Positions 4,039 to 64,000 of a stretch of 64,000 nt of DNA are shown one piece after another. Within the stretch, counting starts at the first letter, position 1; the number at the start of each line of letters is the position of its first letter. The notes under the pieces are model-generated. The model was not told the DNA's origin. It did not search any database and saw only the letters and a list, made by a program, of their open reading frames with translations. Origin of the DNA: a phage; NCBI GenBank assembly GCA_033648345.1, contig GCA_033648345.1_4121.1, one strand, 5' to 3'. The translations under genes were made by a program, and so were the position numbers.

Positions 4039-4039
4039 T

Positions 4040-4282
4040 ATGAAAGTACTGACAGAACTAGAAATGTATCATAGATTTAATAAGTACTATCATTTACTTA
4101 AGCCTATACAGAGGATTAAATGTCCATTTGAAGAGAAACAGGTTTTAATCTATGAGCACAAGTTCTTTGTATCATTAGGTACAGATCAACAAGAGTACTA
4201 TTTGACGTTGTACTTGATTACATTAATAGATTTCATTCACTATAAAACCACACAATCTAATAAAGAGAAATATGAAAACTAA
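4040..4282 (+). CDS. Family A small protein
   Basis: Track ORF 4007..4282; in-frame ATG at 4040 (MKVLTELEMY) follows upstream stop; SLGTDQQEY. Confidence 0.6.
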   Translation: MKVLTELEMYHRFNKYYHLLKPIQRIKCPFEEKQVLIYEHKFFVSLGTDQQEYYLTLYLITLIDFIHYKTTQSNKEKYEN

Positions 4283-4616
4283 TATACAACTCAAGGTATA
4301 TAAATCCTATGAACATATATATATCAAAAGTAGTCTATGTAGAGATGTAATGGACTACAAGGGTAAGCCATTCACAATTACGTATGATTCTTATATTAAT
4401 GATTTATATATATCATTTGTTAATTACGAAAATAAAATATACAAGCACGTTGATATTAAAGATTTAAGTACTTTATCACCAGAGGAATACTTTCAAGAAT
4501 CATTAGTATGGGATTTAGAATTTCCTATGCCATTAGTACATAAAATGATAGTACTAATGAAAGAAGCTAAACAGGAGCCTAATGGTGATTATGAAGAACA
4601 CATTATTGAGTACTGA
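4272..4616 (+). CDS. Family B protein (EEYFQESLVWD motif) embedded in family A array
   Basis: 114 aa; motif SPEEYFQESLVWD. Confidence 0.65.
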   Translation: MKTNIQLKVYKSYEHIYIKSSLCRDVMDYKGKPFTITYDSYINDLYISFVNYENKIYKHVDIKDLSTLSPEEYFQESLVWDLEFPMPLVHKMIVLMKEAKQEPNGDYEEHIIEY

Positions 4617-4619
4617 ACA

Positions 4620-4835
4620 ATGAAAAGATTATCATACAAAGATTACACCAATCTTATCAGGACTTTACAACCAGAAATTAGAAGAATTAATTCTCTTCCT
4701 ATATCTAATGAAGAATGTTCAGTACTGAAAGATGAGTTAATCTTAAAACACACAGTAGGAACAAACTATCAAGCTGATAGTGTTCGATATTTAATTTGGG
4801 GGTTGATGTGTCAAATAAAGTCCAGACAAGCTTGA
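4620..4835 (+). CDS. Family A small protein
   Basis: 71 aa; TVGTNYQAD. Confidence 0.65.
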   Translation: MKRLSYKDYTNLIRTLQPEIRRINSLPISNEECSVLKDELILKHTVGTNYQADSVRYLIWGLMCQIKSRQA

Positions 4836-4890
4836 CAGTACTCTTCATTACTGCTATAGTACACTAACGTTAATCATTAGGGTAAAAATT

Positions 4891-5136
4891 ATGTTAAATT
4901 TTTTAAATTTCCTTATCGTCTTGTGTATTGTTCTTGGGATTGCACCATTTGTATTGTATTTCATGGATTCAGATGAAATGCAGAAGATGAATTGCACAAA
5001 GACAGGACAGAGTAGAGTAGAGACGATTCTTATGCCTGTTACCGTTATTGTTAATAATATGCCCATTACAAACATGGTCCCTACCCTAACGACAACGTAC
5101 CAGTACTCTTGTACAGACGGAGAGAGGTGGAGATAA
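4891..5136 (+). CDS. Small membrane protein
   Basis: 81 aa; hydrophobic N-terminal helix LNFLIVLCIVLGIAPFVLYF; TAATG overlap with next gene. Confidence 0.5.
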   Translation: MLNFLNFLIVLCIVLGIAPFVLYFMDSDEMQKMNCTKTGQSRVETILMPVTVIVNNMPITNMVPTLTTTYQYSCTDGERWR

Positions 5137-18161: not shown

Positions 18162-18705
18162 ACTTGACTTGACATTTGAGCGTGTAAAAATCTTCATTGA
18201 AACTTATCTTATGCATGAAACTATACTGAAAACAAAAGGAATATGGTTCACTGATAAATTTCTTACTCTAGCTATGAGAGGTGGAATGAAACATCTGTAC
18301 TGCACAGATAATGCAAGAATTTCAGTACTGAATTATGATGAAAGTGTAGCATCCAGTACCAGTTTAATTTCTACATACAATGATAATGTTATTAGTATTA
18401 TGTGCAATATGAATGTCCCATCTATTTCTGTATATAAAAACTGTGATAGTTCATTGGGGTACAAGATTGAGCAGTACTTATATCCTAACACAGAAGAAAA
18501 CATCTTTCAAAATAGTCTTATGTGGGATGATACATCTACTAAGTGCATATATCTTTATAATAAATTAAAAGAGTACATTGTTGATAGTTCAATTAGTACT
18601 GCTGTATTCAGTGTTACTGTTTTTAATGATAATCGTGAAGATATGAGTTATTACAGAGACATTGTAAGAATACATGCAATGTATAAGGATCTACTATGTT
18701 ATTAA
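18151..18705 (+). CDS. Family B protein
   Basis: Track ORF 18109..18705; in-frame ATG at 18151 (MYNELDL); TEENIFQNSLMWDD. Confidence 0.55.
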   Translation: MYNELDLTFERVKIFIETYLMHETILKTKGIWFTDKFLTLAMRGGMKHLYCTDNARISVLNYDESVASSTSLISTYNDNVISIMCNMNVPSISVYKNCDSSLGYKIEQYLYPNTEENIFQNSLMWDDTSTKCIYLYNKLKEYIVDSSISTAVFSVTVFNDNREDMSYYRDIVRIHAMYKDLLCY

Positions 18706-19298
18706 ATGCAAATAAATGTTGTAGTACTGAGGTTCATTTGTATTTTAAGAAATTAGTAAATGATATTATCTATATGCAAGAAATCATTTATCACAAAAGA
18801 ATGGACTTAGAAAAAGCATTAGTTCAGTTCTCTTTTAATCTCGATGGTGATATATCGTTAGATGGTGATGGATTGCGTATAGCATTTGACGGTAATACAA
18901 ATAGGGTTTTCTTTTGGATAGATAATAAATTATGTTCATCAATATGTCGTACTTTTTATAACCCTATTTCGGACTTATATCAATTGGTGTATTCTAAAGG
19001 TGCAGTTGAAGCATCATACGGTGATAGCTTTGCACTAGGAAAGAGTATCCCATATATGCAATCATTTGATATTGAATTAGTCAGTACTGATGAAGATGCA
19101 ATGTTCACAAATGATATAACAATGCAGCGTGAATCTGCAATGAGATATATTACAAATTCTATGCATACATTCTTCGAAAGAACAGAATTTGATAATGTGT
19201 ATATAGCAAATGTAAATATTTTTACTGACCTTTGTCAGTTCTTGAGAAGTATTTTTGATTTCGATGAAAGCTATTGTAAGCTTTATACTGAGGTTTAA
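18696..19298 (+). CDS. Hypothetical protein (weak family B motif)
   Basis: 200 aa; TDEDAMFTNDITM. Confidence 0.5.
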   Translation: MLLNANKCCSTEVHLYFKKLVNDIIYMQEIIYHKRMDLEKALVQFSFNLDGDISLDGDGLRIAFDGNTNRVFFWIDNKLCSSICRTFYNPISDLYQLVYSKGAVEASYGDSFALGKSIPYMQSFDIELVSTDEDAMFTNDITMQRESAMRYITNSMHTFFERTEFDNVYIANVNIFTDLCQFLRSIFDFDESYCKLYTEV

Positions 19299-19303
19299 AT
19301 GCC

Positions 19304-19663
19304 ATGAATACCATTAGTATTACGTACTACACAACGAAAAAATACGTTTGTTGTTTACTTTCGTTAAAGACAAATGATGATATGTTTGAAATGGCGGCAT
19401 ATACATTAGAATTGTCAGAAGATGGATTTCAATGTCATGAAGCGTACTCAAATACACGTGAAGATACAATTGATACTACGCTAATGCAAGAAGATGAGTT
19501 ATTTCAAGAAAGTTTAGTATGGGATAAAAAATACTATTGTGATTTTGATTTTCTTTGTTTAATCCAGAAAGAAATGAAAAGGATCTTCGACAATTATCCG
19601 GTGAAGAGATTGAGTACTAAGCCGGAGCAGTACAGGAGAATTTTATTCCGTTATGAAGACTGA
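19304..19663 (+). CDS. Family B protein (DKKY subfamily)
   Basis: 119 aa; QEDELFQESLVWDKKYYCDFD. Confidence 0.65.
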   Translation: MNTISITYYTTKKYVCCLLSLKTNDDMFEMAAYTLELSEDGFQCHEAYSNTREDTIDTTLMQEDELFQESLVWDKKYYCDFDFLCLIQKEMKRIFDNYPVKRLSTKPEQYRRILFRYED

Positions 19664-24462: not shown

Positions 24463-25026
24463 ATGAGTACTGAATTAATTAAAGAAATCACATTGTTGGT
24501 AAAGCATTGTTTTAAGTTCATTGATGATAATGGTTCACGCCAGTACATTAAAGTTAATGAGAAATATAACATTAACGTCCTAAAGAATGAAACCGTTAAC
24601 AGTTATGCAAACATTGAGTTAGATGTTGAGGACAAATACACAGCATTACACATCATTTCGTCCGGCGATAGAAAACAAGATTATCGTTCTACATTTTATG
24701 ATGATAGTGTTACTGTTGGTTATAAATTTCATAAAAATAAAATTGCCTATAAGAATACATACACACATGAAGTAATTGAAGAGTACAATTATAAAATTAA
24801 AAAAGACGAGTACGATGTACTTTTATTCAATGCGAACCTCATACACAACGCTGGTACTGTTCGCAATCTTATGTTAGCATATGAAATTCCAAAGATTATA
24901 GAAAGAAATGAATTGATAATCTTTAAAACTATATTAAAATTCAGTACAGAAGAATTAGAAGATCTAGTACTGGCTCTTAAGACGTTCATCAATGAACATG
25001 TACCTGTTAAATTAGAGGACTTATAA
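24463..25026 (+). CDS. Hypothetical protein
   Basis: 187 aa track ORF with RBS GGAGAAG. Confidence 0.55.
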   Translation: MSTELIKEITLLVKHCFKFIDDNGSRQYIKVNEKYNINVLKNETVNSYANIELDVEDKYTALHIISSGDRKQDYRSTFYDDSVTVGYKFHKNKIAYKNTYTHEVIEEYNYKIKKDEYDVLLFNANLIHNAGTVRNLMLAYEIPKIIERNELIIFKTILKFSTEELEDLVLALKTFINEHVPVKLEDL

Positions 25027-25610
25027 TGCAAGCTGAACACATTCAAATTATGAAATTGATGCATGACATTGCAGAACTATCTGAAAAGCACAACATTACT
25101 GAACATGAGCCTATTGGAAATTATCGTCTTAAAGTTGAATGCAAATCACCATATCGTTTTGGTTCAGTAGTACTGGAGTCTTATAAAGTTTACGATTATG
25201 GAACGACGAAAAAAGGTTCATGGGATACTATGGCAATGTATATCCGAACATCAAGGCATAGTGAGCAAATCGGTTCCATTACTCCAAACATGATATTTGT
25301 CAATGCTTTACACGAAGATATTAATCGAATTGTTGAATCTAATTTTGATGACGTAGAGAATGATACATATTTGGAAATTCCACCAGAACTAGATCAATGT
25401 GAAGACATTCGCGAAGGATACATTTTTCAGAGATCAGTACTTGACAACTTCAAGGAATTTGAGTACATGATGCTTTGCTATGAAACTGCAAAAGCTATTG
25501 ACACTGGTGAATTGGTAATGTATAGTAAGTTCATTAACTGTGAATCCGATACATTAAAAGAGCTACACACGGCAATCAAAAACATCAAGGATACATATGA
25601 ACGCTTATAG
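25026..25610 (+). CDS. Family B protein (divergent)
   Basis: 194 aa; IREGYIFQRSVLDNF. Confidence 0.55.
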   Translation: MQAEHIQIMKLMHDIAELSEKHNITEHEPIGNYRLKVECKSPYRFGSVVLESYKVYDYGTTKKGSWDTMAMYIRTSRHSEQIGSITPNMIFVNALHEDINRIVESNFDDVENDTYLEIPPELDQCEDIREGYIFQRSVLDNFKEFEYMMLCYETAKAIDTGELVMYSKFINCESDTLKELHTAIKNIKDTYERL

Positions 25611-36466: not shown

Positions 36467-36991
36467 ATGTCGAAGAAGGATGCTTCGAAGAAAAAACAAT
36501 CAGTACATTTCAGTACTGGAAAAGATAACTGGACTACTCCAAAGGATTTCTTTGAAGATTTGGATGAACTCTGGGAATTTACACTAGATGCAGCGTGTGT
36601 CAAAGAAACTGCATTGTGTGATAAGTTCTTTACACCAGAAGACAATTCACTTGAACAGGACTGGGGAAACAATATCGTGTGGCTCAACCCACCGTACAGT
36701 GATTTGAAAACGTGGTTATCTAAGGCAGTTGATGCATATAACAAAGGTGCTACAGTACTGATACTTGTACCTTCACGTACCGATACGGTTGCGTTTCAGA
36801 ACTATGCATCAAAAGAATGCGACTGTATTTGTTTTATAAAAGGTCGCTTAAAGTTCGGTATCCCTGAAGAACCAGATAAAAAGACTGACAGTGCTCCATT
36901 CCCTAGTTGTTTAATAGTACTGGATAAGTATTTGACTCCAGCTAAAATCAACTATCTTAAATCTATTGGTCAGGTGATGAAGAACATATGA
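36467..36991 (+). CDS. dam: DNA N6-adenine methyltransferase, phage Dam family
   Basis: 174 aa; motifs WTTP, LDAAC and the NPPY catalytic tetrapeptide (VWLNPPYSD) characteristic of the small phage Dam family. Confidence 0.75.
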   Translation: MSKKDASKKKQSVHFSTGKDNWTTPKDFFEDLDELWEFTLDAACVKETALCDKFFTPEDNSLEQDWGNNIVWLNPPYSDLKTWLSKAVDAYNKGATVLILVPSRTDTVAFQNYASKECDCICFIKGRLKFGIPEEPDKKTDSAPFPSCLIVLDKYLTPAKINYLKSIGQVMKNI

Positions 36992-37521
36992 AAGAAACAT
37001 GTATATTATCATTTATGAGATGTAACCCAATACATCACGGACATGGTTTAGTGTTTGAAAAAGCTCAAGCACTACAAGAACAGTACAATGCTGATTTGAA
37101 AATATTCCTTAGTACCAGTACTGATGCCGTCAAAAACCCATTACCTCCTGAACTGAAAATGTACTATACAGAAGGATTTTACCCATCTGTACAAGAAAAT
37201 ATCTATACAGAAGATAATCTGTTTGATATAATGAGAGAACTGGATGGAAAGTACTTAGATGTTCTTTTCATATGTGGTTCAGATAGACTTGAACCATTCC
37301 AAAAAACACTTGACACGTACAATGGGAAGTTATATAATTTTTGTTCAATCAAGGCAGTTCAAGCTGGAATTGACCGAAATGTAAGTCGCTACAGTTCCAC
37401 ACAGATGCGTGAGTTTGCCAAGAATGAAGATTTTAATAGCTTCAGTACTTTTCTACCTGGTAATGATGATGCACTGAAAATTAAACTATTTGAAGATGTA
37501 ATAAAATACATGAGGAAATAA
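36988..37521 (+). CDS. Nucleotidyltransferase, HxGH (HIGH) motif family (cytidylyl/adenylyltransferase-like)
   Basis: 177 aa; N-terminal FMRCNPIHHGHGLV matches the (T/H)xGH nucleotide-binding signature; exact substrate not assignable. Confidence 0.5.
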   Translation: MKETCILSFMRCNPIHHGHGLVFEKAQALQEQYNADLKIFLSTSTDAVKNPLPPELKMYYTEGFYPSVQENIYTEDNLFDIMRELDGKYLDVLFICGSDRLEPFQKTLDTYNGKLYNFCSIKAVQAGIDRNVSRYSSTQMREFAKNEDFNSFSTFLPGNDDALKIKLFEDVIKYMRK

Positions 37522-43439: not shown

Positions 43440-43703
43440 ATGAATATCCAAGATAGATTGCAATTGTTGCACACACTTGAAGAAGCTGCTTTTGAACTTG
43501 TTAATAAAATTGCACAAGAACTCCCAAAAGGAACCAAAGTTCGTGTTCGTGAAATGGATTATTTAACGGGAAAAATTGATGAAAAAGTTCTAACAGTGAT
43601 CAAAGTAACATACTATGAATCTGAGTTATCAATTCAATGTAAGTCGGATAATGGTTACGTTTCCTACTATGGCACAGATGTAGATATAGAGGTAATAAAA
43701 TGA
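43440..43703 (+). CDS. Family D small protein
   Basis: Track ORF 43395..43703; in-frame ATG at 43440; PKGTKVRVREMDY...VIKVTY pattern shared with family D. Confidence 0.5.
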   Translation: MNIQDRLQLLHTLEEAAFELVNKIAQELPKGTKVRVREMDYLTGKIDEKVLTVIKVTYYESELSIQCKSDNGYVSYYGTDVDIEVIK

Positions 43704-44842
43704 CCCTTTTACAAATATATGAAGATTTAATGCACTTATGTAATACCCGTGAGGCTTTCTTTTATGTGGATCATAAAAGTCCTGCTGGTGGAACGTATCG
43801 TGTATTCAGTTATCGTCTAGCATCATATACTGATTTCATGCAACCCAATGCATTAGAAACCCGTGGTTCTATGTGGGAAATTGATGAAGAAGGTAATATG
43901 ATTCGTTGTGCTGCTCGTACTATGAAAAAGTTCTTCAATGCTTACGAGAATCCTGCTACAATGTTCCCTGCTGATACCACATTCGATGACATTGCAGTAG
44001 TGATGCCTAAGTTGGATGGTTCAGTAATCAGTACTTACCGTGATAATGACGGTGTAATTCGTTGTAAATCACATACTGCATTGTATTCAGACCATGCGAT
44101 TAACAGTGCTCGTCTTCTCAATGAGAACCAAAATTTGTATCAATACATTGACGAAGCAGACCGTTTGGGCTATACTGTTAATCTGGAGTATACAAGTCCA
44201 GAGTACCGTATTGTATTACCATATCAGGTTGAACAATTATTTGTACTAAACGTTCGCAATCGTAAGAGTGGTGAACTATTATGTGGTTCTGCATTACGTA
44301 ATAAGTTCCCATGCCTTGCACAGTACAGTACTAACATGACAGGTAAAGATATTCATCACACTTTCCCTGCTCGTGCTACATTCAAAGAAAGTGTTGAAGA
44401 AGTTAAGAAAATGCTTGACATTGAAGGTTTTGTGTGCATCCTAAATAATGGTACAATGTGCAAAATCAAAACCGACTGGTATTGTTCTTTGCATTTAACG
44501 AAAGACAGTATTATAATCGATTCCCATTTATATGAAGCTGTATTAAATGGTTCGAGTGATGATTTAAAACAGTTGTTCAGTACTGACGAATATGCTACCC
44601 AAAAGATATTAAGAATGGAACAACTAGTCTTTTCGTGCTATAATGCTTTACAAGATGAAGTTGAAAGCTTCGTCAAGGAACACAAGCACTTGGAGCGAAA
44701 GGAATTCGCTAAGAAGGTTCAGGAGTGTTTAACTAATGAACTGAATCGTCAGGGCTTGGCCTTTGCAATGTACAACAATAAGAAAGTCGATTACAAAGAG
44801 ACTCTTATTAAGTACATGAAAATTGTACTAAAGGATTTTTAG
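43700..44842 (+). CDS. rnlA: RNA ligase 1 (T4 RnlA-like)
   Basis: 380 aa; N-terminal region closely matches T4 Rnl1 from memory (FFYxDxxSxxGxTYRxFSYxxASYxD...ALExRG); KxDG adenylation motif MPKLDGS; C-terminal KIKxDWY. Confidence 0.8.
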   Translation: MTLLQIYEDLMHLCNTREAFFYVDHKSPAGGTYRVFSYRLASYTDFMQPNALETRGSMWEIDEEGNMIRCAARTMKKFFNAYENPATMFPADTTFDDIAVVMPKLDGSVISTYRDNDGVIRCKSHTALYSDHAINSARLLNENQNLYQYIDEADRLGYTVNLEYTSPEYRIVLPYQVEQLFVLNVRNRKSGELLCGSALRNKFPCLAQYSTNMTGKDIHHTFPARATFKESVEEVKKMLDIEGFVCILNNGTMCKIKTDWYCSLHLTKDSIIIDSHLYEAVLNGSSDDLKQLFSTDEYATQKILRMEQLVFSCYNALQDEVESFVKEHKHLERKEFAKKVQECLTNELNRQGLAFAMYNNKKVDYKETLIKYMKIVLKDF

Positions 44843-45664: not shown

Positions 45665-46597
45665 ATGCCAACTATCACACTAACAGTTGGATTGCCTGGG
45701 TGTGGTAAAACTACATGGGCAGTGCAAGAGATTAAAAAAGCCAAATCCAAGACTATCAACATCAACCGTGATGATATTCGTGAATCTATGGCTGGGTCAC
45801 ATGATGCTTACAAATTCAACGATGCTAATGAGCAGTACGTAACTAATTTACAGTTCAGTGCAGCAAATTCAGCAGCAGAGAATGGTTGGAACATCATCAT
45901 ATCCGATACGAACCTTAAACAACATTTCCGTAATCTATGGAAAGTATGGGCTATAGATAATGGTTATGATTACAAAGAAAAGAACTTCTATGATGATTTT
46001 GTACCTAATGAAGACCGTGGTGCAGATGTTCATGAATTCTTTAAGATTAAAGAGTTCGTAAAACTTTGTAAGAAATATAACCTCCAGCGTGAGCGTTCAG
46101 TACAAGATAATATCATTGACACTATGGCAGATACGTACTATTATAGTAAAGCATTGCACATTGGTTACTATGGTAATTCACGAGAAGCTGCTATTATCGT
46201 TGATATCGACGGTACTCTTGCTCATAAATGGGGCCGTAACCCGTTCGATGAAAGTACTGTACTCCAGGATACACCAGACGAAGAAGTTATTTTATCTGTT
46301 ATCGCTGAAGCAGTTTTTCATAAACGCAAGATTATCGTCATGAGTGGGCGTACTGAAGGGTGTCGTGCTGATACCGAACAGTGGCTTAAGAATTGGGGTG
46401 TTCCTTATGATGCGTTGTTTATGCGAGGCATCGATGACAAACGTCCTGATGATGTTGTAAAATTCGACCTGTACATGAAAAATGTGGTTGATCATTACGA
46501 TGTTAAAAAGGTTTATGATGATAGATCACAAGTTGTATTCATGTGGCGTAAGCTACTTGGGTTGAAAGTAATGCAAGTTGCTGAAGGTAATTTCTAA
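45665..46597 (+). CDS. pseT: Polynucleotide 5'-kinase / 3'-phosphatase (T4 Pnk-like)
   Basis: 310 aa; N-terminal P-loop GLPGCGKTTWA and NINRDD; C-terminal HAD phosphatase motif VDIDGTLA, VMSGR, KVYDDRSQVV; collinear with T4 Pnk from memory. Confidence 0.85.
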   Translation: MPTITLTVGLPGCGKTTWAVQEIKKAKSKTININRDDIRESMAGSHDAYKFNDANEQYVTNLQFSAANSAAENGWNIIISDTNLKQHFRNLWKVWAIDNGYDYKEKNFYDDFVPNEDRGADVHEFFKIKEFVKLCKKYNLQRERSVQDNIIDTMADTYYYSKALHIGYYGNSREAAIIVDIDGTLAHKWGRNPFDESTVLQDTPDEEVILSVIAEAVFHKRKIIVMSGRTEGCRADTEQWLKNWGVPYDALFMRGIDDKRPDDVVKFDLYMKNVVDHYDVKKVYDDRSQVVFMWRKLLGLKVMQVAEGNF

Positions 46598-49739: not shown

Positions 49740-49993
49740 TGTTCAACACCGACTATTCACATTTGCGATATCTTATGTCTTTGGCTGATGATTTTATTAA
49801 TGATTTGAAGCCGAAGTATATTGGACAAGAAGTACGTTTGATAAACTCAAGGGGTTATGGGAAGTACATTATCGCTGATATGTATATTAGCGGTGGTGAA
49901 TGGCGTTTCAAAGTTAATACGTATCTTAAAGATGGTTCTTTTGCAGGTACACAAGTTACAAAACACACTAACATTATATGGTTGGAACAATAA
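49739..49993 (+). CDS. Family D small protein
   Basis: Track ORF 49664..49993; ATG at 49739 overlaps upstream stop (TAATG); YIGQEVRLINSRGYGKY...WRFKV. Confidence 0.5.
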   Translation: MFNTDYSHLRYLMSLADDFINDLKPKYIGQEVRLINSRGYGKYIIADMYISGGEWRFKVNTYLKDGSFAGTQVTKHTNIIWLEQ

Positions 49994-50736
49994 TGAAACA
50001 TTTTTTGGAAGTTACAGTACCGGATGATAAAGATTTATATATCGTTGGTGATTTACACGGTAATGGAAAACTGTGGGATGCTACCAAGAAAGAATTTGGC
50101 ATTACCAATAATGACTATGTTTTTTGTGTAGGTGATGTTATTGACCGTGGTGACCAGAATTCCAAACTACTGTTTGAATTCCTTTTCGGTGAAAACCGTT
50201 TTATGATTGCTGGGAACCACGAGATGATGTGTGTGGACTCCGAAACAATGAGGGATTGGTATCATTGCTGGCAAAGTAATGGTGGTGATAAATTTCTTGA
50301 TGAAGTTGGTGAGACAGGTATACAGTTCTTTCGTCAGTACTTAAAGGAACTCCCTATGATTATCCAAATCAATCACCGAGGATTGAAGATTGGACTAGTT
50401 CATGCTGGTGTTCCATTGGAATATACAACATGGGAACGTTTCGTTAGTGGGACAAAATCACTTAGTGCTGATATAATTGAGAAGTGCTTGTGGGAACGTG
50501 ATACATTCGACTACTGCAAGAAAAATAACACATATTACGTCCCTAGACTTGATGGTATCCATTGCGTCTTTAGTGGTCATACCGCAGTATCCGACCCACT
50601 CATTTATGGTAATCGTATCTGGATTGATAGTCAGTTCTTAACTGGTGATTTGACTCTTGCAACTCCCCAAAGTGGTGGGATGAGATACTTACGTAAAGAA
50701 AAAGATGAGTACTCATTTAACCGCTTCAAAAGGTAA
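49993..50736 (+). CDS. Ser/Thr protein phosphatase (lambda PPase-type metallophosphoesterase)
   Basis: Track ORF 49978..50736; ATG at 49993 overlaps upstream stop; motifs GDLHG, GDVIDRG, GNHE, GHT. Confidence 0.8.
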   Translation: MKHFLEVTVPDDKDLYIVGDLHGNGKLWDATKKEFGITNNDYVFCVGDVIDRGDQNSKLLFEFLFGENRFMIAGNHEMMCVDSETMRDWYHCWQSNGGDKFLDEVGETGIQFFRQYLKELPMIIQINHRGLKIGLVHAGVPLEYTTWERFVSGTKSLSADIIEKCLWERDTFDYCKKNNTYYVPRLDGIHCVFSGHTAVSDPLIYGNRIWIDSQFLTGDLTLATPQSGGMRYLRKEKDEYSFNRFKR

Positions 50737-51020: not shown

Positions 51021-51248
51021 ATGAAAGTAATTCAAGTTATGGTAGAAAAATACCAAACTGAAGATGGTCGTATTTTTGATTCAGCAAAACAAGCTGAACA
51101 CCATGAACGTATTATTTCTGGTACACGTAAAGTGTGCCCTACATGTAATGGTACACAACAAGTTCCATCTGAAGACTATCGCAGTTATTATGCTTGTCCA
51201 CATTGTGATGGTAAAGGGTTTGTAGAAAAACAAGAGGTATGGAAATGA
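51021..51248 (+). CDS. Small zinc-finger protein (DnaJ-type CxxCxGxG repeats)
   Basis: 75 aa; CPTCNGTQ and CPHCDGKG motifs. Confidence 0.55.
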   Translation: MKVIQVMVEKYQTEDGRIFDSAKQAEHHERIISGTRKVCPTCNGTQQVPSEDYRSYYACPHCDGKGFVEKQEVWK

Positions 51249-51658
51249 AATTATATTGCTTAACAAACATGTACTGCCAAGGTGTACAAGCTGGCATTCA
51301 AGCATTTCATGCTGGCATAAAACTAATTAAAGAATATGAAGGTACTGCTTTCAGTACTATTATTGATGAATGGTATTATGACCACGAAACTATTGTAGTA
51401 CTAAATGCTGGTGGTCATGATAAGTTAAATTCTTATTATGATGACCTTTGTAAGCAGGGAAAAGTGCCATTCGCTAAATTCAATGAAGCCGGATTAAATG
51501 ATGCAACTACATGTGTAGCAGTACTATGTACATCTGAAATGGTTGAAGACATGTCTGTTATGCGTATGAATCTTCCTGCTGGGGATCAACTAATGCAAGT
51601 AAAATATGGTGCATTGTTTAACACATTAAAAGCAATTAGCACAATGAGGACTGTTTGA
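51239..51658 (+). CDS. Hypothetical protein
   Basis: 139 aa track ORF; alternative ATG at 51245 gives ATGA overlap. Confidence 0.5.
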   Translation: MEMKLYCLTNMYCQGVQAGIQAFHAGIKLIKEYEGTAFSTIIDEWYYDHETIVVLNAGGHDKLNSYYDDLCKQGKVPFAKFNEAGLNDATTCVAVLCTSEMVEDMSVMRMNLPAGDQLMQVKYGALFNTLKAISTMRTV

Positions 51659-52868: not shown

Positions 52869-54287
52869 ATGAGCATTTTAGCAATTCTTGAAAGCATTAA
52901 AAATACTAGCAGTACTCTGGGTAAAAAAGCTATCCTTGAACAAAACAAAGATAATCAAACATTACAAAAAGTACTGAAATATACACTAGACCCTTCAATT
53001 GTAAGTGGATATAAAAAGCTACCACAAGCTGATGATCTATACCAACATATGACATTAGACGAAGCAATTGATAAGCTAGAATGCATTTACAAACGTGGTG
53101 TGACCGGAAATGCTGGGCGTGACTTCATTTCTTCAGTACTGGGTTCTGTATCAGAAGATGACCAGGAAGTTCTTCGTAAAATGCTCACGAAGAACCTTGA
53201 TTGTGGTATCCAAGAAAAGAACTGTAATGATGTGTTCGGGAAAGGTTTCATCAAAGACGAACCATACATGCGTTGTTCTTTGATTGACAAAAAGACTGCA
53301 AAGAACATTAACTTCAAAGATTATGGTTATGCTATATCAGAAGTGAAGATGGATGGTCAGTACTTGAACCACGTTGTCATTAATGGTTCATTAACTTCTA
53401 CATCCCGTAATGGCAAACTATACGACTTCCTGGGTTGTCGTGATGGTGAAATGGCAGGTCTTGCTCACATCATCCAAAGTAAAGATGAACGTTTTAGTAG
53501 TGGTGTAGTCTTTATGGGTGAAGGTGTAGTACTGGACAATGATGGAGAAACCATTCTCCCACGCACTACTGGTAACGGTATCATTCAGAAAGCTGGTAAA
53601 GATAGCATCAGTCAAAATGAAGCAATGCGTACTGTATTCGTTCTATGGGATGTTGTTCCATATGATGCATTTTGTGAAGGTGTATGGAATGTAAAACGTA
53701 AAGAACGCCGCGAGATCTTAGTAGATGCAATTAACGAACTCGGTAGTGATTTTGTTCGTATGGTTGGATTCCGTAAAGTTCTAAACATCAAAGAAGCATT
53801 TGAGTACAATAGTGAACTAATGAACGAAGGTGAAGAGGGTTCAGTACTGAAATGTGAAGATGGTATCTGGAAATCTCACACTTCTCCTAAGCAATTGAAA
53901 ATGAAACTTAAAATGCAATTGGACTTGCGTATTGTTGGTTTCAATGAAGGTGAAGGTAAGCGTAAAGGTAGCCTTGGTTCTTTACAACTGGAAAGTGCTT
54001 GTGGTACATTGAAAGTTAATGTAGGTACTGGAATTAAAGAGAAAGACGCAGAATGGACGTTTAAAACCATTTGGGAAAGAATGCAAGAACTCATTGGTCA
54101 AGTAGTGACAGTAGAGTGCAATGATATTGTATTCGATAAGCGTACTGGTGAGCCATCACTATTTTTACCAGTGTTTATTGAATTTAGATTTGACAAAAAC
54201 ACCTGTGACGACTATACTCGTATCTTAGAAATTCGTGATAGTGCTGTTGAGGTGTTCTCTAATAGTATTCTTGAATCACTCGGTTAA
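52869..54287 (+). CDS. ATP-dependent DNA ligase
   Basis: 472 aa; RBS AAGGGAAT; KxDG adenylation motif EVKMDGQY and downstream nucleotidyltransferase/OB-fold pattern in a T4-ligase-sized protein. Confidence 0.8.
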   Translation: MSILAILESIKNTSSTLGKKAILEQNKDNQTLQKVLKYTLDPSIVSGYKKLPQADDLYQHMTLDEAIDKLECIYKRGVTGNAGRDFISSVLGSVSEDDQEVLRKMLTKNLDCGIQEKNCNDVFGKGFIKDEPYMRCSLIDKKTAKNINFKDYGYAISEVKMDGQYLNHVVINGSLTSTSRNGKLYDFLGCRDGEMAGLAHIIQSKDERFSSGVVFMGEGVVLDNDGETILPRTTGNGIIQKAGKDSISQNEAMRTVFVLWDVVPYDAFCEGVWNVKRKERREILVDAINELGSDFVRMVGFRKVLNIKEAFEYNSELMNEGEEGSVLKCEDGIWKSHTSPKQLKMKLKMQLDLRIVGFNEGEGKRKGSLGSLQLESACGTLKVNVGTGIKEKDAEWTFKTIWERMQELIGQVVTVECNDIVFDKRTGEPSLFLPVFIEFRFDKNTCDDYTRILEIRDSAVEVFSNSILESLG

Positions 54288-54306: not shown

Positions 54307-55098
54307 ATGAAATTTGTTGTAACGTCAGACGTACACGGTGGCACTGATTACCTCCATAGTGGTGATTACAGTGATACAGTACTGATTATTGCAGGGGACT
54401 TTGATGAAGTTAAACGCAGTCGTTATCGTACTGGTATCGAATCCCTGTGCAAGCAGTTCAAGAATGTAGTACTGGTTCCTGGTAATCATGAGTACTACGG
54501 TTCAAACATTCACAAGACTAATAAAGTACTGTCCGATATGCAAGATGAGATTCCAAATTTCATCTTTTTGCAAAACAAATTTGTATGGCTGGATGGTGTA
54601 CTGCTGGTTGGTAGTACACTGTGGACTGACTTTGATAAAGGCAACGCACTGGTTAAGTTTGATGCTCAACAAAAGATGAATGATTATAAACACATTCGTC
54701 ATGGAACAACATCAGAACCGTGGAAACGTAAGCTCAAACCTGATGATGTTGAGTTCATGCATCATCAGGATAAACAATTTATCAAAAATTCAGTTAACAC
54801 AGTTCGTCTAATGAATGATAATGATTTCAAGGTTGTGGTGGTAACACATCATGCACCAAGTTATCAGAGTGTATCTCCGAGATACAAGAATGACTCACTG
54901 AATGGATGTTATTGTTCTGATATGGACCAGTACATCGAAGATTTGGGTGCTGATGTTTGGATTCATGGTCACGTTCATAGTAGCTTTGACTACAACATTG
55001 GGAAAACTCGTATCATTTGTAATCCAAGAGGTTATGAATCTTACAGTGGTGCATGTGAGAACTTCGATTACGATCCTAAATTTGTATTTGAAATCTAA
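54307..55098 (+). CDS. Calcineurin-like metallophosphoesterase
   Basis: 263 aa; RBS AGGAGG; motifs SDVHGG, AGDFDE, PGNHEYYG, THHAP, GHVH. Confidence 0.7.
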   Translation: MKFVVTSDVHGGTDYLHSGDYSDTVLIIAGDFDEVKRSRYRTGIESLCKQFKNVVLVPGNHEYYGSNIHKTNKVLSDMQDEIPNFIFLQNKFVWLDGVLLVGSTLWTDFDKGNALVKFDAQQKMNDYKHIRHGTTSEPWKRKLKPDDVEFMHHQDKQFIKNSVNTVRLMNDNDFKVVVVTHHAPSYQSVSPRYKNDSLNGCYCSDMDQYIEDLGADVWIHGHVHSSFDYNIGKTRIICNPRGYESYSGACENFDYDPKFVFEI

Positions 55099-59572: not shown

Positions 59573-60181
59573 GTGGTACGATTATGTAAAGAAATCATCC
59601 AATCTATTATTATTATTTTCTTAATTAACTTTCCTGCAAGTGCAGGTGTTGAAAGAAAAAGTATCATTAGATATGATGAATCTAAACAGACAGTTCAGTT
59701 CATTTCAACTTTAACTGAAAATACTGTAAACCGTTTGATGGTTTTTAGAGAAACACACCCATTTGACACTATCATCATTACGTCACCTGGTGGTGATTTT
59801 GATGCGGGAGTGGCACTAGGAAATTTTGTCAATGATAACAATTTAACAATTATTGTTGAAAGATATTGTAATTCTTCTTGCACTATCGCATTCTTTAGTG
59901 CTAATATAGAAAACAGATACATGATGAAGGACTCAATTCTAGGTCTACATAATGTGTCAATCGAAAGTAAAGCACGAAATAGTGATGACACATACATATC
60001 AGTTCGCCAAATGACTATTTTTGCTGAACAGCTATCAACTAAGGTTGGTGTTCTATTTGCGTTATATGCAGCGAATGGTATTCCTCCAGAATTGTTAGTG
60101 GAGGTTAGTAAGGTTCGTGGTAATGAAGTTGTGAGACTTACACCAGATCAGTTGCTCGAATTAGGTAGTATCATTCATTAG
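59573..60181 (+). CDS. Secreted ClpP/SppA-like serine peptidase (putative)
   Basis: 202 aa; GTG start after RBS AGAGGG; N-terminal signal-like hydrophobic segment; ITSPGGDFDAG resembles the ClpP/S49 xSPGG motif. Confidence 0.45.
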   Translation: MVRLCKEIIQSIIIIFLINFPASAGVERKSIIRYDESKQTVQFISTLTENTVNRLMVFRETHPFDTIIITSPGGDFDAGVALGNFVNDNNLTIIVERYCNSSCTIAFFSANIENRYMMKDSILGLHNVSIESKARNSDDTYISVRQMTIFAEQLSTKVGVLFALYAANGIPPELLVEVSKVRGNEVVRLTPDQLLELGSIIH

Positions 60182-60273: not shown

Positions 60274-60534
60274 ATGACAAATTTACAAAACTTAACATCT
60301 CTTGTTTTTTATGCAACAACTATTGTATATTGCATTACATTAGTTTTAACATGTTTCATCTATAAAGACTACAAACGTGGTTTTATGGATTCCAGTACAC
60401 ACAAATTTGCATCCAAGTTCGAAGCAGGAATTTACTATGTTCTATCAATTTCTTATGGAGCATGTTTACTTACACTAGGGTTGCTGATATACTGGTTGTA
60501 TACGGCACTTTTTGCACAAGGAGTTATTTCATGA
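60274..60534 (+). CDS. Small membrane protein
   Basis: 86 aa; two hydrophobic segments; RBS AGGAGTG. Confidence 0.5.
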   Translation: MTNLQNLTSLVFYATTIVYCITLVLTCFIYKDYKRGFMDSSTHKFASKFEAGIYYVLSISYGACLLTLGLLIYWLYTALFAQGVIS

Positions 60535-61124
60535 CTTGTATTATCGCTCACACAAATGGCACATCTTCCTTCATCGCTGGTGATAAATTAGGAAGCAATG
60601 GTTTCACTAAAGCAGTTCAAACTGAGCCTAAAGTGTTTGAGAAAGAGTTCATTAAACTCAATGAGGATGGTCTTACTCGCACTAAAGAAGTAATGGCGTT
60701 AGGGTATACTACATCGTTCCGCATGGGTCAGTTGTTGAATTACAACCTAACTCTACCAGAACAAGTTGCAGGGGAAACCTTTTCACAGTATCTAGTACTG
60801 AAAGTTATTCCTATCATTCGTCAAATGTTTAAAGATGAATGGGGTGCTCGTGATGCATCACAAGACGTTGGTGGTGGTCAGTTCATTATTCTTCATAATC
60901 ATACGATTTATGAAGTTCAAGAAGACTTTTCAGTACTGCAACCTAAAACACAAATTACTGCTGTCGGAAGTGGGACTTATCATGCAATTGCATCCATGTC
61001 AGCGTATATTGAAGTTCAAGAAGAAACCAATGTTCAGTTACATGAACGTGTTGAGTCTATTTTCAAAATTGTCAGTGATAATGTAACAAGTGTTAGTCCA
61101 GAGTTTGATATTTTGAAATACTGA
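60531..61124 (+). CDS. HslV-like N-terminal nucleophile hydrolase (putative peptidase)
   Basis: Track ORF 60462..61124; ATG at 60531 gives ATGA overlap; N-terminus MTCIIAHTNG..FIAGD and internal AVGSGTYHAIASMSAY resemble HslV TTIVSVRRNG..IAGD and IGSGGPYAQAAARAL. Confidence 0.45.
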   Translation: MTCIIAHTNGTSSFIAGDKLGSNGFTKAVQTEPKVFEKEFIKLNEDGLTRTKEVMALGYTTSFRMGQLLNYNLTLPEQVAGETFSQYLVLKVIPIIRQMFKDEWGARDASQDVGGGQFIILHNHTIYEVQEDFSVLQPKTQITAVGSGTYHAIASMSAYIEVQEETNVQLHERVESIFKIVSDNVTSVSPEFDILKY

Positions 61125-61155: not shown

Positions 61156-61347
61156 ATGGCATACATAGTTTACGAGTGGATTTTTTGTTTCATAGTTGTG
61201 TTTATTTGTGTGGTGTTATACAATCATACTAAATGTTTATACCGAGAATTCAGGAATGGTAATAAACATGGACACAATAAGTGGATGTATGTCTATCATA
61301 TTGCTATCATTGTATTTTTAGTATTAAACTTGATACTTTTTATATAA
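61156..61347 (+). CDS. Small membrane protein
   Basis: 63 aa; two hydrophobic helices. Confidence 0.5.
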   Translation: MAYIVYEWIFCFIVVFICVVLYNHTKCLYREFRNGNKHGHNKWMYVYHIAIIVFLVLNLILFI

Positions 61348-61356: not shown

Positions 61357-62109
61357 GTGATATCAGATAAATTTATACAAAATGCTGGGAACAAAAGATT
61401 ACTTATAATTTCAGGGGCAGGTCTTTCAGTTGAGAGCGGGATGGAACCATTCCGCTTTGATGATGGGTTGTGGGACAATTTCAAAATTAATGATGTTTGT
61501 AACATTGCACGACTTAGTTCTAAGTATCATATAGTTCATTCATTTTATAATACATTGCGTGTAAAATTAGGTGAATGTCATCCTAATGAAATGCATTACT
61601 TTATTAAATCATTAGAAGATTTGTATGGTGATTGTTTTTTACACATGACTTCTAATATGGATGATCTATATACTAGAATTGGTGGAACCGAACTCAAACT
61701 ACACGGCAATTTATGTGAAGTAATTGAGAACTTTTCTATTAATACTGATGATTACAATGTCATTAATTGTGGTTATGAACCATATATCCCTAAAGCTGAT
61801 GTTTTTGCAAAACCAAATGTAGTGATGATTGGTGAGTATCATCGCTACGTTGATGGGGTACGTCTCCCCATTTATGAAGAACGAAATGAAGTGTTGAAAA
61901 GTCTCACAGAAAATGATACAGTTGTAGTTATTGGAAGTAGTGATACAGTACTGGTATGGTCCAGACTAGCTGGTGCACTTCCATGCTATAGTGTAAATGT
62001 TAACATCCGAAAAAATGATAATGATTTTCTTTTTAATGAGAAGGTCATCAAACCTGCGACGAAAGCAATTCCACAGGTTGAAACTATAATTAAGGAACGA
62101 ATGCGATGA
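61357..62109 (+). CDS. Sir2-family NAD-dependent protein deacylase / ADP-ribosyltransferase
   Basis: 250 aa; GTG start after AAGGAG; sirtuin signature ISGAGLSVESGMEPFR (consensus GAGISxxSGIPxFR), HG catalytic His context LHGNL, GSS motif VIGSSDTV. Confidence 0.7.
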   Translation: MISDKFIQNAGNKRLLIISGAGLSVESGMEPFRFDDGLWDNFKINDVCNIARLSSKYHIVHSFYNTLRVKLGECHPNEMHYFIKSLEDLYGDCFLHMTSNMDDLYTRIGGTELKLHGNLCEVIENFSINTDDYNVINCGYEPYIPKADVFAKPNVVMIGEYHRYVDGVRLPIYEERNEVLKSLTENDTVVVIGSSDTVLVWSRLAGALPCYSVNVNIRKNDNDFLFNEKVIKPATKAIPQVETIIKERMR

Positions 62110-62657
62110 GTAAAGCTGAAGTACCACTGGGACAACTGGGGAAACGTGCAAATTTTGTATTCTGTTTCTTTTATGCAAAAGAATGTACCCCATACTCTGG
62201 TTATGAACTAAATGATATTCCAGTGGTTAACTTAGTACTCCTACAAGTGCGTTGGGATGGATTGTTGGGTGCATGTGGTGGAACAGTTGAAAGTACTGAT
62301 AAGTCATTAGAAGATGCGTTACAACGTGAAGTACAAGAAGAAATGAACTATATCATTGACAAAAGTCGCCTGTCTCCATTAAAATCACTTGAATTGTTTC
62401 CAGAGGGTCACTCACATAGCTATAGTTATGAAATGACTTATGCTGAACTTAAAAAACTTCGTGATAATTATGCATATGGCAAACATGCTAGTGCAGAGGT
62501 GGCTGGTGTAAATTTATGTCACATCTCTCGTTATTCGAAGGGACAAAATCGAGAAGCAGGATATAATAATCTTATGACACAGAACTTCATCGGAACTGCG
62601 AAACAAGAATTAGAGTATCTTGTACAAAAAGAAAACTTACTAATCAGCTATCTATAG
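62106..62657 (+). CDS. Nudix hydrolase
   Basis: 183 aa; ATGA overlap with Sir2 gene; Nudix box GACGGTVESTDKSLEDALQREVQEEMN fits Gx5Ex7REUxEExGU. Confidence 0.7.
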   Translation: MSKAEVPLGQLGKRANFVFCFFYAKECTPYSGYELNDIPVVNLVLLQVRWDGLLGACGGTVESTDKSLEDALQREVQEEMNYIIDKSRLSPLKSLELFPEGHSHSYSYEMTYAELKKLRDNYAYGKHASAEVAGVNLCHISRYSKGQNREAGYNNLMTQNFIGTAKQELEYLVQKENLLISYL

Positions 62658-62666
62658 GAGTTTAAA

Positions 62667-62987
62667 ATGTCGTACTCAATGTTCTTGGATGATATTCGTG
62701 ATTATCAAAAATATTATCCTGACCAAGAGATGGTATTGTGTCGTGACTACGAAAGTGCATGTGAATACGTAATCAAAAATGGAATTCCAGCATTTGTCTC
62801 ATTTGACCATGACTTGGGTGACTTGAGTACAGATGAGAAAACTGGATACACTTTTGCCAAATTTCTAATTGATTATATGTTTGAGCATAATATTAAAGAA
62901 CCATTTAAATACTATGTACATAGTAGTAATCCAGTAGGGAAAGTTAATATTGAAACTTACTTAACTAATGGATTTAATGCACTATGA
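62667..62987 (+). CDS. Hypothetical protein
   Basis: 106 aa; conserved-looking SFDHDLGD and YVHSSNPVG segments; function not assignable. Confidence 0.5.
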   Translation: MSYSMFLDDIRDYQKYYPDQEMVLCRDYESACEYVIKNGIPAFVSFDHDLGDLSTDEKTGYTFAKFLIDYMFEHNIKEPFKYYVHSSNPVGKVNIETYLTNGFNAL

Positions 62988-63347: not shown

Positions 63348-64000
63348 ATGAAAAAATATACAATTGACACAAACGTACTACTATCTGATCCAAATGCTAC
63401 CATTGCTTTTGATGGAGCAGCTATCATTCTACCGTTCACAGTACTTGAAGAATTGGATTCAATCAAAAGTCGTAATGTGGATGTTTCCCGTGATGCTCGT
63501 GTTGCAATCCGTAACATTGAAGCAATCCTTTCTGATGCATCACATGAAGAAATTAGTAGTACTGGTGTTAATATTGCTGATGTTCATACTAATATGAGTC
63601 CTGAAAGCAAATTGTTTGTTATTACAAGCGAAGAAGCTGAAGCACTAATTCGTACTGCTGGTAACGAAGAGAAAGTTCAAACTCTTCTAAAAAGCACAGT
63701 ACCAGATGATAAAATCATTTTAGTAGCATTAGCAACTGATTCAGTACTGGTTACCCGTGATATCAATATGCGTATCAAGGCTCTAAGCTACGGGGTGGAA
63801 GTTCAAGATTATCGTCATGATATCGTGATTGGTGATAGTGATTTGATTCACATTGGTCAACATCACCTCGACCTAGATTTTTGGGATGTGTATAGCAATC
63901 TAACTGATGTGTCTATCCAATCTGAACAAGTTGGTCGCCGTTTGTATCACTACATTCCAAAAAGCTTGATTGAACATATCATGCCACAAAATATTTGCAT
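63348..64000 (+). CDS. PIN-domain protein, probably PhoH2/YlaK-like (3' end beyond window)
   Basis: Read by hand (no stop inside window, so absent from track); RBS CAAGGATG; N-terminus YTIDTNVLLSDPNA...ILPFTVLEELDSIK matches the PIN domain found at the N-terminus of PhoH-like ATPases. Confidence 0.5.
   Translation, partial: MKKYTIDTNVLLSDPNATIAFDGAAIILPFTVLEELDSIKSRNVDVSRDARVAIRNIEAILSDASHEEISSTGVNIADVHTNMSPESKLFVITSEEAEALIRTAGNEEKVQTLLKSTVPDDKIILVALATDSVLVTRDINMRIKALSYGVEVQDYRHDIVIGDSDLIHIGQHHLDLDFWDVYSNLTDVSIQSEQVGRRLYHYIPKSLIEHIMPQNIC

Follow-up and report, generated by a model that had tools for sequence, protein, structure and literature searches.

The genes analysed here have a close counterpart in the literature. 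In the parts of their survey that deal with phage sirtuins, Iyer, Burroughs, Anantharaman and Aravind (2022, Viruses 14:1977, PMC9503650) delineate a type-1 sirtuin neighbourhood, with Serratia phage BF as its prototype; the sirtuin is predicted there to act like KptA/Tpt1, removing 2'-phosphates from RNA with NAD+, and its partners to process the cyclic phosphate of ADP-ribose (ADPr>P; ADPr, ADP-ribose). The present study concerns a 64,000-nucleotide stretch of phage DNA (contig GCA_033648345.1_4121.1, hereafter the window), near the end of which a Sir2-family protein (sirtuin), a Nudix hydrolase, a cREC domain protein, a small predicted membrane protein and a PIN-PhoH protein are encoded one after the other. 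As far as the published description goes, this block is like the type-1 neighbourhood in phage group, sirtuin clade, partners (Nudix, cREC and a PIN endoRNase) and gene order. It is unlike the BF prototype in that its Nudix and cREC are unfused and that the 2H, NAMPT and NMNAT-Nudix genes are absent, and the passages of PMC9503650 devoted to the neighbourhood do not class the Nudix as NUDT16-like. The block is already known as a computational prediction (comparative genomics of 2021-2022) and as GenBank annotation, having been published as a predicted NAD-dependent RNA-repair system in section 3.7.3 of that paper, and the suggestion of an initial annotation of the window that it is a distinct solution has to be abandoned. 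The new details are the NUDT16 family membership of the Nudix, a model of cREC as a truncated receiver fold and the extension of the block to the membrane protein and PIN-PhoH. Full-text literature searches for later experimental work on phage sirtuins or cREC found none.

Two other described systems bear on the locus. The proposed logic of the block, namely an NAD+-dependent enzyme, an opener of cyclic phosphates and the disposal of an ADPr-cyclic-phosphate, is that of yeast and plant Trl1 (ligase, kinase and 2H cyclic phosphodiesterase) acting together with Tpt1/KptA, and rV5-like relatives encode a ligase, cREC, a kinase and Sir2 side by side. The phage system would nevertheless differ from the eukaryotic one in using a sirtuin for the ART-fold Tpt1 and the receiver-like cREC for 2H, with activities that are predicted, and the ligase and the polynucleotide kinase-phosphatase (Pnkp) of the window are of T4 type and lie 15-17 kb away. 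The NARP1, NARP2 and NARP3 pathways share with the block a phage-encoded chemistry of NAD+ and ADPr, and NARP2-type genes abut the block in sister genera; unlike these pathways, the block contains no NAD+-synthesising enzyme, its sirtuin consumes NAD+, and the window genome is devoid of NAMPT and NMNAT-Nudix.

Results

A conserved block of NAD/ADP-ribose genes in jumbo phages

The genes for Sir2, the NUDT16-like Nudix, cREC, the small membrane protein and PIN-PhoH, in this order, make up a single conserved unit of transcription and translation in jumbo phages of the RaK2/121Q type (Table 1). We tentatively propose, at a probability somewhat short of even, that the block uses up NAD+ in acting on a substrate with a phosphate or cyclic phosphate, for which damaged RNA ends are the likeliest candidate, and afterwards breaks down the ADP-ribose that this leaves; every substrate and reaction named for it below is one that we infer from gene identities, catalytic-residue conservation, synteny, a gene fusion and clade membership.

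An open reading frame (ORF) listing and direct reading of the sequence gave three co-directional ORFs within 61357-62987, and profile matches far beyond chance confirmed that these encode, as initially annotated, a sirtuin, a Nudix hydrolase coupled to it by ATGA and a 106-aa protein. The Sir2 ORF opens with GTG preceded by AAGGAG, the Nudix ATG and the Sir2 TGA share the ATGA at 62106-62109, and the start of the membrane protein gene overlaps the cREC stop, again as ATGA. The membrane protein, in which inspection of the sequence reveals an N-terminal hydrophobic helix, is separated from the PIN-PhoH start by a gap of about 60 nt. PIN-PhoH is cut by the window end; its full length is 479 aa in Escherichia phage fEgEco12, and its orthologue in the related locus L001 matches PIN_4 (PF13638, E=4e-20) and PhoH (PF02562, E=8.5e-45). 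A scan for terminator-like sites found none inside the block, the output of the promoter and terminator scans being the same as for shuffled sequence, and nothing in these scans contradicts a single transcription unit.

The window comes from a 121Q/PBECO4-type jumbo coliphage. Over the 3-kb region its identity with deposited genomes is 99.7% for Escherichia phages Ecwhy_1 and fEgEco12 and about 79% for 121Q and PBECO4; all of these are jumbo myophages of about 350-385 kb. In the GenBank records of these relatives the first gene is labelled "Sir2-like protein / NAD-dependent protein deacylase", the second "NUDIX hydrolase" and the cREC gene mostly "hypothetical". The whole fEgEco12 record (375 kb; window coordinate = record coordinate - 24597) was used for genome-wide checks.

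The co-occurrence of Sir2 and Nudix in related genomes, the absence of which the initial annotation had named among the findings that would refute its proposal, is near-invariable. The Nudix was found in 71 phage-database records, 70 of them RaK2/121Q/GAP32/CBB/BF-type jumbo phages and one a 63-kb record, and in 69 of the 71 it is co-linear with Sir2 and cREC (at least 80% of a concatenated Sir2+Nudix+cREC query covered, in one co-linear place). We also surveyed 59 IMG/VR loci with a Sir2 relative: in 7/7 of the jumbo loci with intact flanks, whose Sir2 proteins are 46-90% identical, the order Sir2, Nudix, cREC, membrane protein and PIN-PhoH is kept on one strand. The same block is present in BF, RaK2 and CBB, which represent three other genera and, like the seven intact loci, carry the membrane protein between cREC and PIN-PhoH; in the related phages examined PIN-PhoH is always the next gene downstream. 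Nudix and cREC are one polypeptide in L008 (a 301-aa ORF), BF, CBB and P0163, and this fusion argues that the two act in consecutive steps on one molecule.

The sirtuin

The sirtuin matches Pfam SIR2 (PF02146) with E=1.4e-19 and 71.1 bits (cut-off 24) and phrog_2162 with E=1e-73, and its motif GAGLSVESGMEPFR spans residues 20-33. All NAD-binding and catalytic residues are kept (G20, A21, G22, S27, F32, R33, N100, D102 and H116), and G20, G22, S27, N100, D102 and H116 are invariant across the sirtuin clade. H116 aligns with the catalytic His of E. coli CobB, so that the loss of the catalytic His or Asn, which the initial annotation had held to be fatal to its proposal, has not occurred. CobB is the best match in the PDB by sequence (E about 2e-21), and the folds nearest to the predicted structure (pLDDT 89.6) are those of CobB, Sir2Af1/2 and SIRT5. 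Of the classes named initially (deacylase, ADP-ribosyltransferase and NADase), it is that of the lysine deacylases, and not that of defence NADases, to which the nearest structures belong: the defence-type Sir2 NADases (ThsA, DSR and SIR2-HerA) gave no PADLOC match and are not found in the top 50 Foldseek matches.

The likeness to CobB and to class III sirtuins such as SIRT5, the closest solved structures and sequences (28-29% identity, TM about 0.76-0.84), includes the catalytic His, Asn and Asp and the GAG motif, but it has clear limits. No CxxC is found between H116 and G159, and just two Cys, neither of them conserved, are present; the Zn cysteine tetrad is missing. In the class-III YxxR pair, Y64 is present and the Arg position is L67; Leu or Met occupies it across the jumbo clade, whereas CobB and the rV5-like and T5-like sirtuins retain the Arg. 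After the GE motif there is an insertion of 17 residues, and the best NCBIfam matches, all of them deacylase models, are below threshold (89 bits against an equivalog cut-off of 318). The sirtuins of jumbo, rV5-like (about 145 kb) and T5-like (about 111 kb) phages have in common, throughout the phage sirtuins retrieved, both the Zn loss and a replacement signature, [DN][IV]GY..KPN[IV]V; the remaining phage sirtuins retrieved, like the outgroup proteins P0029, L011, L023 and L026, retain CxxC..CxxC. We take the Zn loss and the signature as a shared derived character and, because they are common to the three groups, would place the sirtuin of the window in the published "distinct clade" of phage sirtuins. 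The RaK2/K64-1 lineage (the L004 Sir2, P0012 and P0014) has GNG..Y[HD] in place of the cofactor-loop motif GAG..FR but keeps N100, D102 and H116; its sirtuin may bind NAD+ in another way or be impaired.

The Nudix hydrolase

The second protein matches the Pfam Nudt16-like family (PF22327) over profile positions 4-161 of 161 with E=1.4e-18 and 67.8 bits (cut-off 27), the general NUDIX profile PF00293 with E=2.4e-7 and phrog_9999 with E=7e-79; its top PDB matches, both full-length, are human NUDT16 and Xenopus X29 (E about 1e-11). The "complete Nudix box" of the initial annotation needs one qualification: the catalytic R-E..E-E core is intact, but in place of the canonical GX5EX7REUXEEXGU the protein has the NUDT16-type variant, G59-x5-D65-x8-R74-E75-V-Q-E78-E79-M-N81-Y, in which the spacing is that of human NUDT16 and the last Gly is replaced by Asn.

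In human NUDT16 bound to ADPr, His24 and Ile164 stack, Ser166 and Gln170 contact the adenine, Arg50 contacts the alpha-phosphate, and Glu76, Glu80 and Glu136 bind metal (PMC6459841). The HMMER alignment equates R49, E75, E78, E79, E131, I162 and T164 of the phage protein with R50, E76, E79, E80, E136, I164 and S166 of human NUDT16; at the base-reading position Gln170 is E168 in the phage, and the equivalent of His24, which falls outside the aligned region, is uncertain. The alignment thus predicts an intact nucleoside-diphosphate-X pocket, the Gln-to-Glu change aside. The phage Nudix accordingly shares with NUDT16 and X29 full-length homology, the variant box and the contact residues, and departs from them in its overall identity (about 30%), in Glu168, in its location in a sirtuin operon and in its occasional fusion to cREC. 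By experiment, members of the NUDT16 family hydrolyse ADP-ribose and ADPr conjugates and also act in decapping and on IDP (PMC6459841, PMC6582358): human NUDT16 hydrolyses free ADPr (PMC6459841) and takes ADPr off RNA ends modified by TRPT1, the human Tpt1 (PMC6582358). This action on TRPT1 products is a direct experimental bridge from the Nudix family of the block to Tpt1 chemistry.

Outside animals and the jumbo phages that carry the block, members of the family are rare, since an exhaustive search among 1.84 billion proteins returned only 222 representative clusters at E<=1e-3; word-indexed homologue searches with Sir2 and Nudix had returned only a tight jumbo clade, and it was the exhaustive search that revealed the wider NUDT16-like family. 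Its NUDT16-like domains are found fused to cREC, to Ham1/ITPase (P0238) and to an HD domain (P0218).

The cREC protein

The third gene, described initially as encoding a small conserved protein, is indeed conserved but is not anonymous: its 106-aa product matches the Pfam domain cREC_REC (PF20274) above threshold (E=1.9e-23). A search of the PDB by sequence found no relative even at E<=10. The model shows a truncated receiver fold with the conserved acidic pocket present. The domain was defined by Iyer et al. in a survey of jumbo phages (PMC7824862) and is reported by these authors in up to 18% of jumbo phages, and in the sections of PMC9503650 that treat it the authors themselves state that it is experimentally uncharacterised.

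Salvage genes and RNA-repair genes around the block

The genes that come just before the block in L008, BF, CBB and RaK2 are NMNAT-Nudix and NAMPT, which together make the NARP2-type pair for NAD+ salvage. Among the members listed, every one outside Asteriusvirus has NAMPT 3-5 kb upstream of the Nudix, GAP32 being among these sister genera. The initial annotation had set the Sir2-Nudix pair apart from NadV/NAMPT-type salvage, but the block is no alternative to such salvage: it follows NAMPT and NMNAT-Nudix directly in RaK2, BF, CBB, GAP32 and others. The window lineage lacks the pair: no 121Q-type phage is among the NAMPT matches, and the ORFs of the 375-kb genome contain no recognisable NAMPT, NMNAT-Nudix, Acb1-like 2H or HAD_SAK gene in single-sequence phmmer searches (E<=1 for 2H), which very divergent copies could escape. 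Products of NARP1 and NARP3 (Adps and Namat; NadR and PnuC) are not annotated in fEgEco12, for which no profile search was made for them. Between the salvage pair and the sirtuin, L008, BF and CBB carry a 2H gene for a protein of about 150 aa; the L008 protein matches Pfam Acb1 (anti-CBASS; PF23474) with E=1.4e-15, and those of BF and CBB are annotated "RNA ligase"; the Acb1-like 2H gene is present in L003, L005, L007, L008, BF and CBB.

The adjacency of NAMPT to the block is not stressed in the text of PMC9503650 that concerns the neighbourhood. The adjacency has two readings: the salvage genes may recycle NAD+ for a repair enzyme that spends it, nicotinamide being a sirtuin by-product, or the whole may be an anti-defence island. 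The function of the block is independent of the salvage genes, for the window lineage lacks them and yet retains the block. Some phage sirtuins that keep the Zn ribbon also have NAD-synthesis-like genes directly upstream, as judged from inspected translations: in L023 an ORF resembling NAMPT, and in L053/L054 one resembling an HxGH nucleotidyltransferase. The pairing of a sirtuin with NAD salvage may thus recur outside the jumbo clade.

In the smaller phages the sister sirtuins stand among other genes. The rV5-like locus L017 reads calcineurin-like phosphoesterase, Rnl1-like RNA ligase, cREC, P-loop kinase (an ORF without a phosphatase domain), Sir2, ATP-dependent DNA ligase and, further on, a MazG-like gene; the T5-like locus L040 reads NrdD, Sir2 and a HAD "Swiss-army-knife" RNA-repair phosphatase (HAD_SAK_2), and in T5-like loci PhoH is 3-4 kb from Sir2. 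Two calcineurin-like phosphoesterases, a PTH2-like peptidyl-tRNA hydrolase (its match, E=1.2e-4, narrowly misses the Pfam cut-off) and an ATP-dependent DNA ligase are encoded in the window itself (49993-50736, 51245-51658, 52869-54287 and 54307-55098). That a calcineurin-like phosphoesterase and a DNA ligase (with a MazG-like gene) also surround the rV5-like Sir2 hints at a shared ancestral neighbourhood.

Other features of the window and genome

The window also encodes a T4 Rnl1-type RNA ligase and a T4-type Pnkp, which, like the identity of cREC and the extension of the block into the membrane protein and PIN-PhoH, the initial annotation had missed. About 800 bp separate the ligase (gp63 family) from Pnkp, and the two form a tRNA repair pair of T4 type; in fEgEco12 they are annotated as 'hypothetical protein' and 'polynucleotide 5', respectively. 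Elsewhere the fEgEco12 genome has a CCA-adding enzyme, two more Nudix genes, a sub-threshold Macro domain, Pth-like proteins and 6 tRNA genes, none of the latter within the window. A CCA-adding enzyme, a Nudix, a weak Macro-domain protein and a Pth-like protein lie together outside the window at fEgEco12 121624-125273 (L063 21624-25273). The Macro-domain match in L063 (E=5.7e-4) falls short of the Pfam cut-off; if real, this domain could provide the ADPr-1''-phosphatase step of a Tpt1-type pathway.

The 63-aa hydrophobic ORF directly upstream of Sir2 has no homologue upstream of Sir2 in other groups. Several groups have an ORF of 60-90 aa at this place, and a conserved small partner of the sirtuin was considered and rejected, these ORFs being unrelated in an all-against-all phmmer comparison. 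Further upstream are two peptidase-like genes, one ClpP-like (59573-60181; PF00574, E=4e-4; phrog_26024) and one HslV-like (60462-61124; phrog_1040), the latter keeping its position upstream of Sir2 in L002, L003, L005 and L007. Downstream of PIN-PhoH, at a distance of 4-10 kb, L001 encodes a WGR-domain protein (18562-19533, E=1.3e-10) and a DUF4326 protein (24807-25133, E=3e-24), the gene for which sits between an anaerobic ribonucleotide reductase and its activase. WGR is a PARP-associated domain. DUF4326 has been tied to NAD-utilising systems by Iyer et al. Genes of nucleotide metabolism near the block include those for dCMP deaminase, a MazG-like protein, ribonucleotide reductases and thymidine kinase.

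An ORF with an HxGH motif at 36988..37521, which the initial annotation had tentatively added to the same metabolism, does exist and matches phrog_3041 'cytidyltransferase' (E=4e-52); its similarity to phage NMNATs, however, is confined to the HxGH motif region (E=0.02-0.04). It was rejected as the NMNAT of the block, its matches to phage NMNAT-Nudix being at motif level and those to Pfam and NCBIfam sub-threshold, and no PDB relative being found. At the other end of the window (about 1-2700; fEgEco12 g073-g084, in a run that begins upstream of the window at g057) about 28 consecutive ORFs of 65-85 aa follow one another on one strand, the stop codon of one overlapping or abutting the start codon of the next; all are annotated hypothetical and by appearance they are a tandem small-gene family.

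Table 1. Features of the block, candidate partners outside it and the corresponding regions with salvage genes in other phages
Feature	Coordinates	Strand	Matches and remarks
Hydrophobic ORF, 63 aa, directly upstream of Sir2; unit membership uncertain	61156..61347	+	= g217 in fEgEco12
Sirtuin (Sir2 family), 250 aa, Zn-ribbon-less phage clade	61357..62109	+	PF02146, phrog_2162
NUDT16-like Nudix hydrolase, 183 aa	62106..62657	+	PF22327, PF00293, phrog_9999
cREC (cyclic-phosphate-processing receiver-like) domain protein, 106 aa	62667..62987	+	PF20274
Small predicted membrane protein, 100 aa	62984..63286	+	phrog_14661 E=1e-38
PIN-PhoH gene, 5' part (PIN domain), truncated by window end	63348..64000	+	full-length orthologue
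T4 Rnl1-type RNA ligase, outside operon, candidate repair partner	43700..44842	+	phrog_562 E=8e-108; PDB 2C5U (T4 RNA ligase 1) E=1e-56
T4-type polynucleotide kinase-phosphatase (Pnkp), outside operon, candidate partner	45665..46597	+	HAD_PNKP PF25109 E=6e-43, AAA_33; PDB 1LTQ (T4 PNK) E=6e-38
Salvage pair next to block, L008	3840-7753
Salvage pair next to block, L069 (phage BF)	2035-5950
Salvage pair next to block, L070 (RaK2)	1013-4671
Salvage pair next to block, L071 (CBB)	1-4918

Discussion

The retention of every NAD-binding and catalytic residue of the sirtuin and its near-invariable linkage to the Nudix bear out the initial view of an operon centred on NAD and ADP-ribose, and none of the outcomes listed initially as refuting it was observed. 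Under the reading that we tentatively prefer, the sirtuin would transfer ADP-ribose from NAD+ to a 2'-phosphate (or a terminal phosphate) of RNA; cREC would open the cyclic phosphate, either on the resulting by-product or on an RNA 2',3'-cyclic end; the NUDT16-like Nudix would cleave the pyrophosphate to give AMP and phosphoribose, or would remove ADPr left on RNA ends; PIN-PhoH would contribute an RNA-directed ATPase/nuclease activity; and Rnl1 and Pnkp, encoded 15-17 kb upstream, would seal and heal the ends. In sister genera the adjacent NAMPT and NMNAT-Nudix would convert the released nicotinamide to NAD+. By analogy, the rV5 gene order, which mirrors Trl1 plus Tpt1, is the strongest contextual argument: it would make cREC the cyclic phosphodiesterase and Sir2 the analogue of the 2'-phosphotransferase. 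The HAD phosphatase and PhoH near T5-like sirtuins, the Rnl1 and Pnkp genes of the window, the CCA-adding enzyme and 6 tRNA genes found elsewhere in the genome, and the activities of human NUDT16 on ADPr and on ADPr-modified RNA ends also speak for this reading. The same RNA-repair model was reached independently by Iyer et al. (PMC9503650 section 3.7.3, PMC7824862), and the type-1 linkage that they describe, a sirtuin with Nudix, cREC and PIN and with no adjacent Macro gene, is found in the window. The 2H phosphoesterase linked to type 1 is missing, a phmmer search of the 375-kb genome (E<=1) having found no homologue of the Acb1-like protein of L008.

Several points weigh against an RNA substrate. 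We know of no sirtuin with a demonstrated action on RNA or on a phosphate nucleophile, and this one is nearest to genuine lysine deacylases (CobB, Sir2Af and SIRT5) and retains the deacylase catalytic set. The phosphatase of T4 Pnkp removes 2',3'-cyclic, 3'- and 2'-phosphates, leaving no 2'-PO4; because the phage Pnkp carries a complete phosphatase domain of its own, a Tpt1-like step is not obviously needed here, unlike in the rV5-like phages, whose kinase ORF has no such domain. Rnl1 and Pnkp are also far from the block, with about 40 genes between. PIN nucleases, as far as we know, are metal-dependent and produce no cyclic-phosphate ends. According to the sections of PMC9503650 on cREC, the activity of this domain has nowhere been assayed. 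Finally, the Ham1/ITPase fusion of distant NUDT16-like proteins implies that the fold also serves inosine-nucleotide sanitation.

The resemblance of the sirtuin to deacylases opens an alternative that we consider unlikely, in which it would be a CobB-like enzyme acting on acylated lysines of host or phage proteins and the Nudix would turn the resulting 2''/3''-O-acyl-ADP-ribose into AMP and acyl-ribose-phosphate, much as yeast Ysa1 and human NUDT5 clear O-acyl-ADP-ribose. The closest sequences and structures (E. coli CobB, Sir2Af1/2 and SIRT5), the deacylase models that head the NCBIfam matches, the presence of all needed residues (G20-A-G22, S27, F32, R33, N100, D102 and H116) and the name deacylase in public records would all agree with such a role; the NCBIfam scores, however, are far short of their cut-offs, the Arg that would recognise an acyl-carboxylate is Leu or Met in the jumbo clade, and all four cysteines are gone from the Zn-ribbon module. 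In canonical sirtuins this module contributes to the peptide-binding cleft. Deacylation would moreover leave cREC without a role, and would explain neither the Nudix-cREC fusion nor the location of sister sirtuins amid an RNA ligase, a kinase and a HAD_SAK phosphatase. We hold it to be similarly improbable that the block is part of a counter-defence island, in which Nudix and cREC would destroy NAD-derived messengers or toxic ADPr derivatives (cyclic ADPR isomers, ADPr-1''-P or ADPr>P), or would strip toxin-placed ADP-ribose from phage nucleic acid, and in which the sirtuin would ADP-ribosylate a host factor. In L008, BF, CBB and RaK2 the block directly follows the NARP2-type pair, which experimentally counters NAD-depleting defences (PMC13464706), and the 2H gene between them in L008 matches the anti-CBASS Pfam family Acb1; Iyer et al. 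hold that phage Nudix, Macro and NADAR domains mainly oppose soluble ADPr signals, and NUDT16 strips ADPr from modified proteins as well as from RNA ends. The window genome, however, keeps the block although it has no NAMPT, NMNAT-Nudix or Acb1-like gene; the sirtuin consumes NAD+, which makes the rescue of NAD depletion by the sirtuin alone impossible; and it would be needless for signal degradation, yet Sir2 is there in 69/71 records. A defence-system identity of the block was tried with PADLOC and gave nothing significant (no match for sirtuin and cREC, a marginal one for Nudix at E=0.0014), and the literature searches turned up no experiment tying the sirtuin, Nudix or cREC families of the block to a defence system.

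The Ham1/ITPase-fused homologue P0238 and the activity of NUDT16 as an IDP/dIDP hydrolase would also suit a house-cleaning Nudix directed at (d)IDP and (d)ITP, or a Sir2-Nudix pair that strips host NAD+ to AMP and ribose-phosphate for the replication of a 350-kb AT-rich genome, in a region rich in genes for dCMP deaminase, MazG-like protein, ribonucleotide reductase and thymidine kinase. We find this explanation very improbable: the strict linkage and the fusion involve cREC and Sir2, not nucleotide-pool enzymes, sister genera place genes of NAD+ synthesis, not of catabolism, beside the block, and the sirtuin is like deacylases and transferases and unlike the SIR2_2-type NADases. What probability remains we leave to some other explanation of the block.

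Taken to its full extent, the RNA-end reading leads to a broader proposal, which we consider doubtful. The Zn-less phage sirtuin would be the first with a nucleic-acid phosphate as its physiological acceptor, replacing Tpt1/KptA non-homologously; cREC would be the first receiver-fold cyclic phosphodiesterase, and the NUDT16-type Nudix would finish the process. Together with the NAMPT and NMNAT of sister genera, this would make a closed phage cycle in which NAD+ is spent and rebuilt to rescue RNA cut by host immune nucleases.

Whether its chemistry serves RNA repair or counter-defence, the block offers enzyme work a target that is compact, clearly bounded and strongly conserved. Should counter-defence be true instead, a new anti-immunity module would take its place beside NARP2. 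If the predicted chemistry is true, sirtuins would gain a new substrate class, RNA phosphates, the cREC domain would receive its first activity, and phages would be shown to repair the damage inflicted by immune nucleases through an NAD-dependent route parallel to eukaryotic tRNA splicing.

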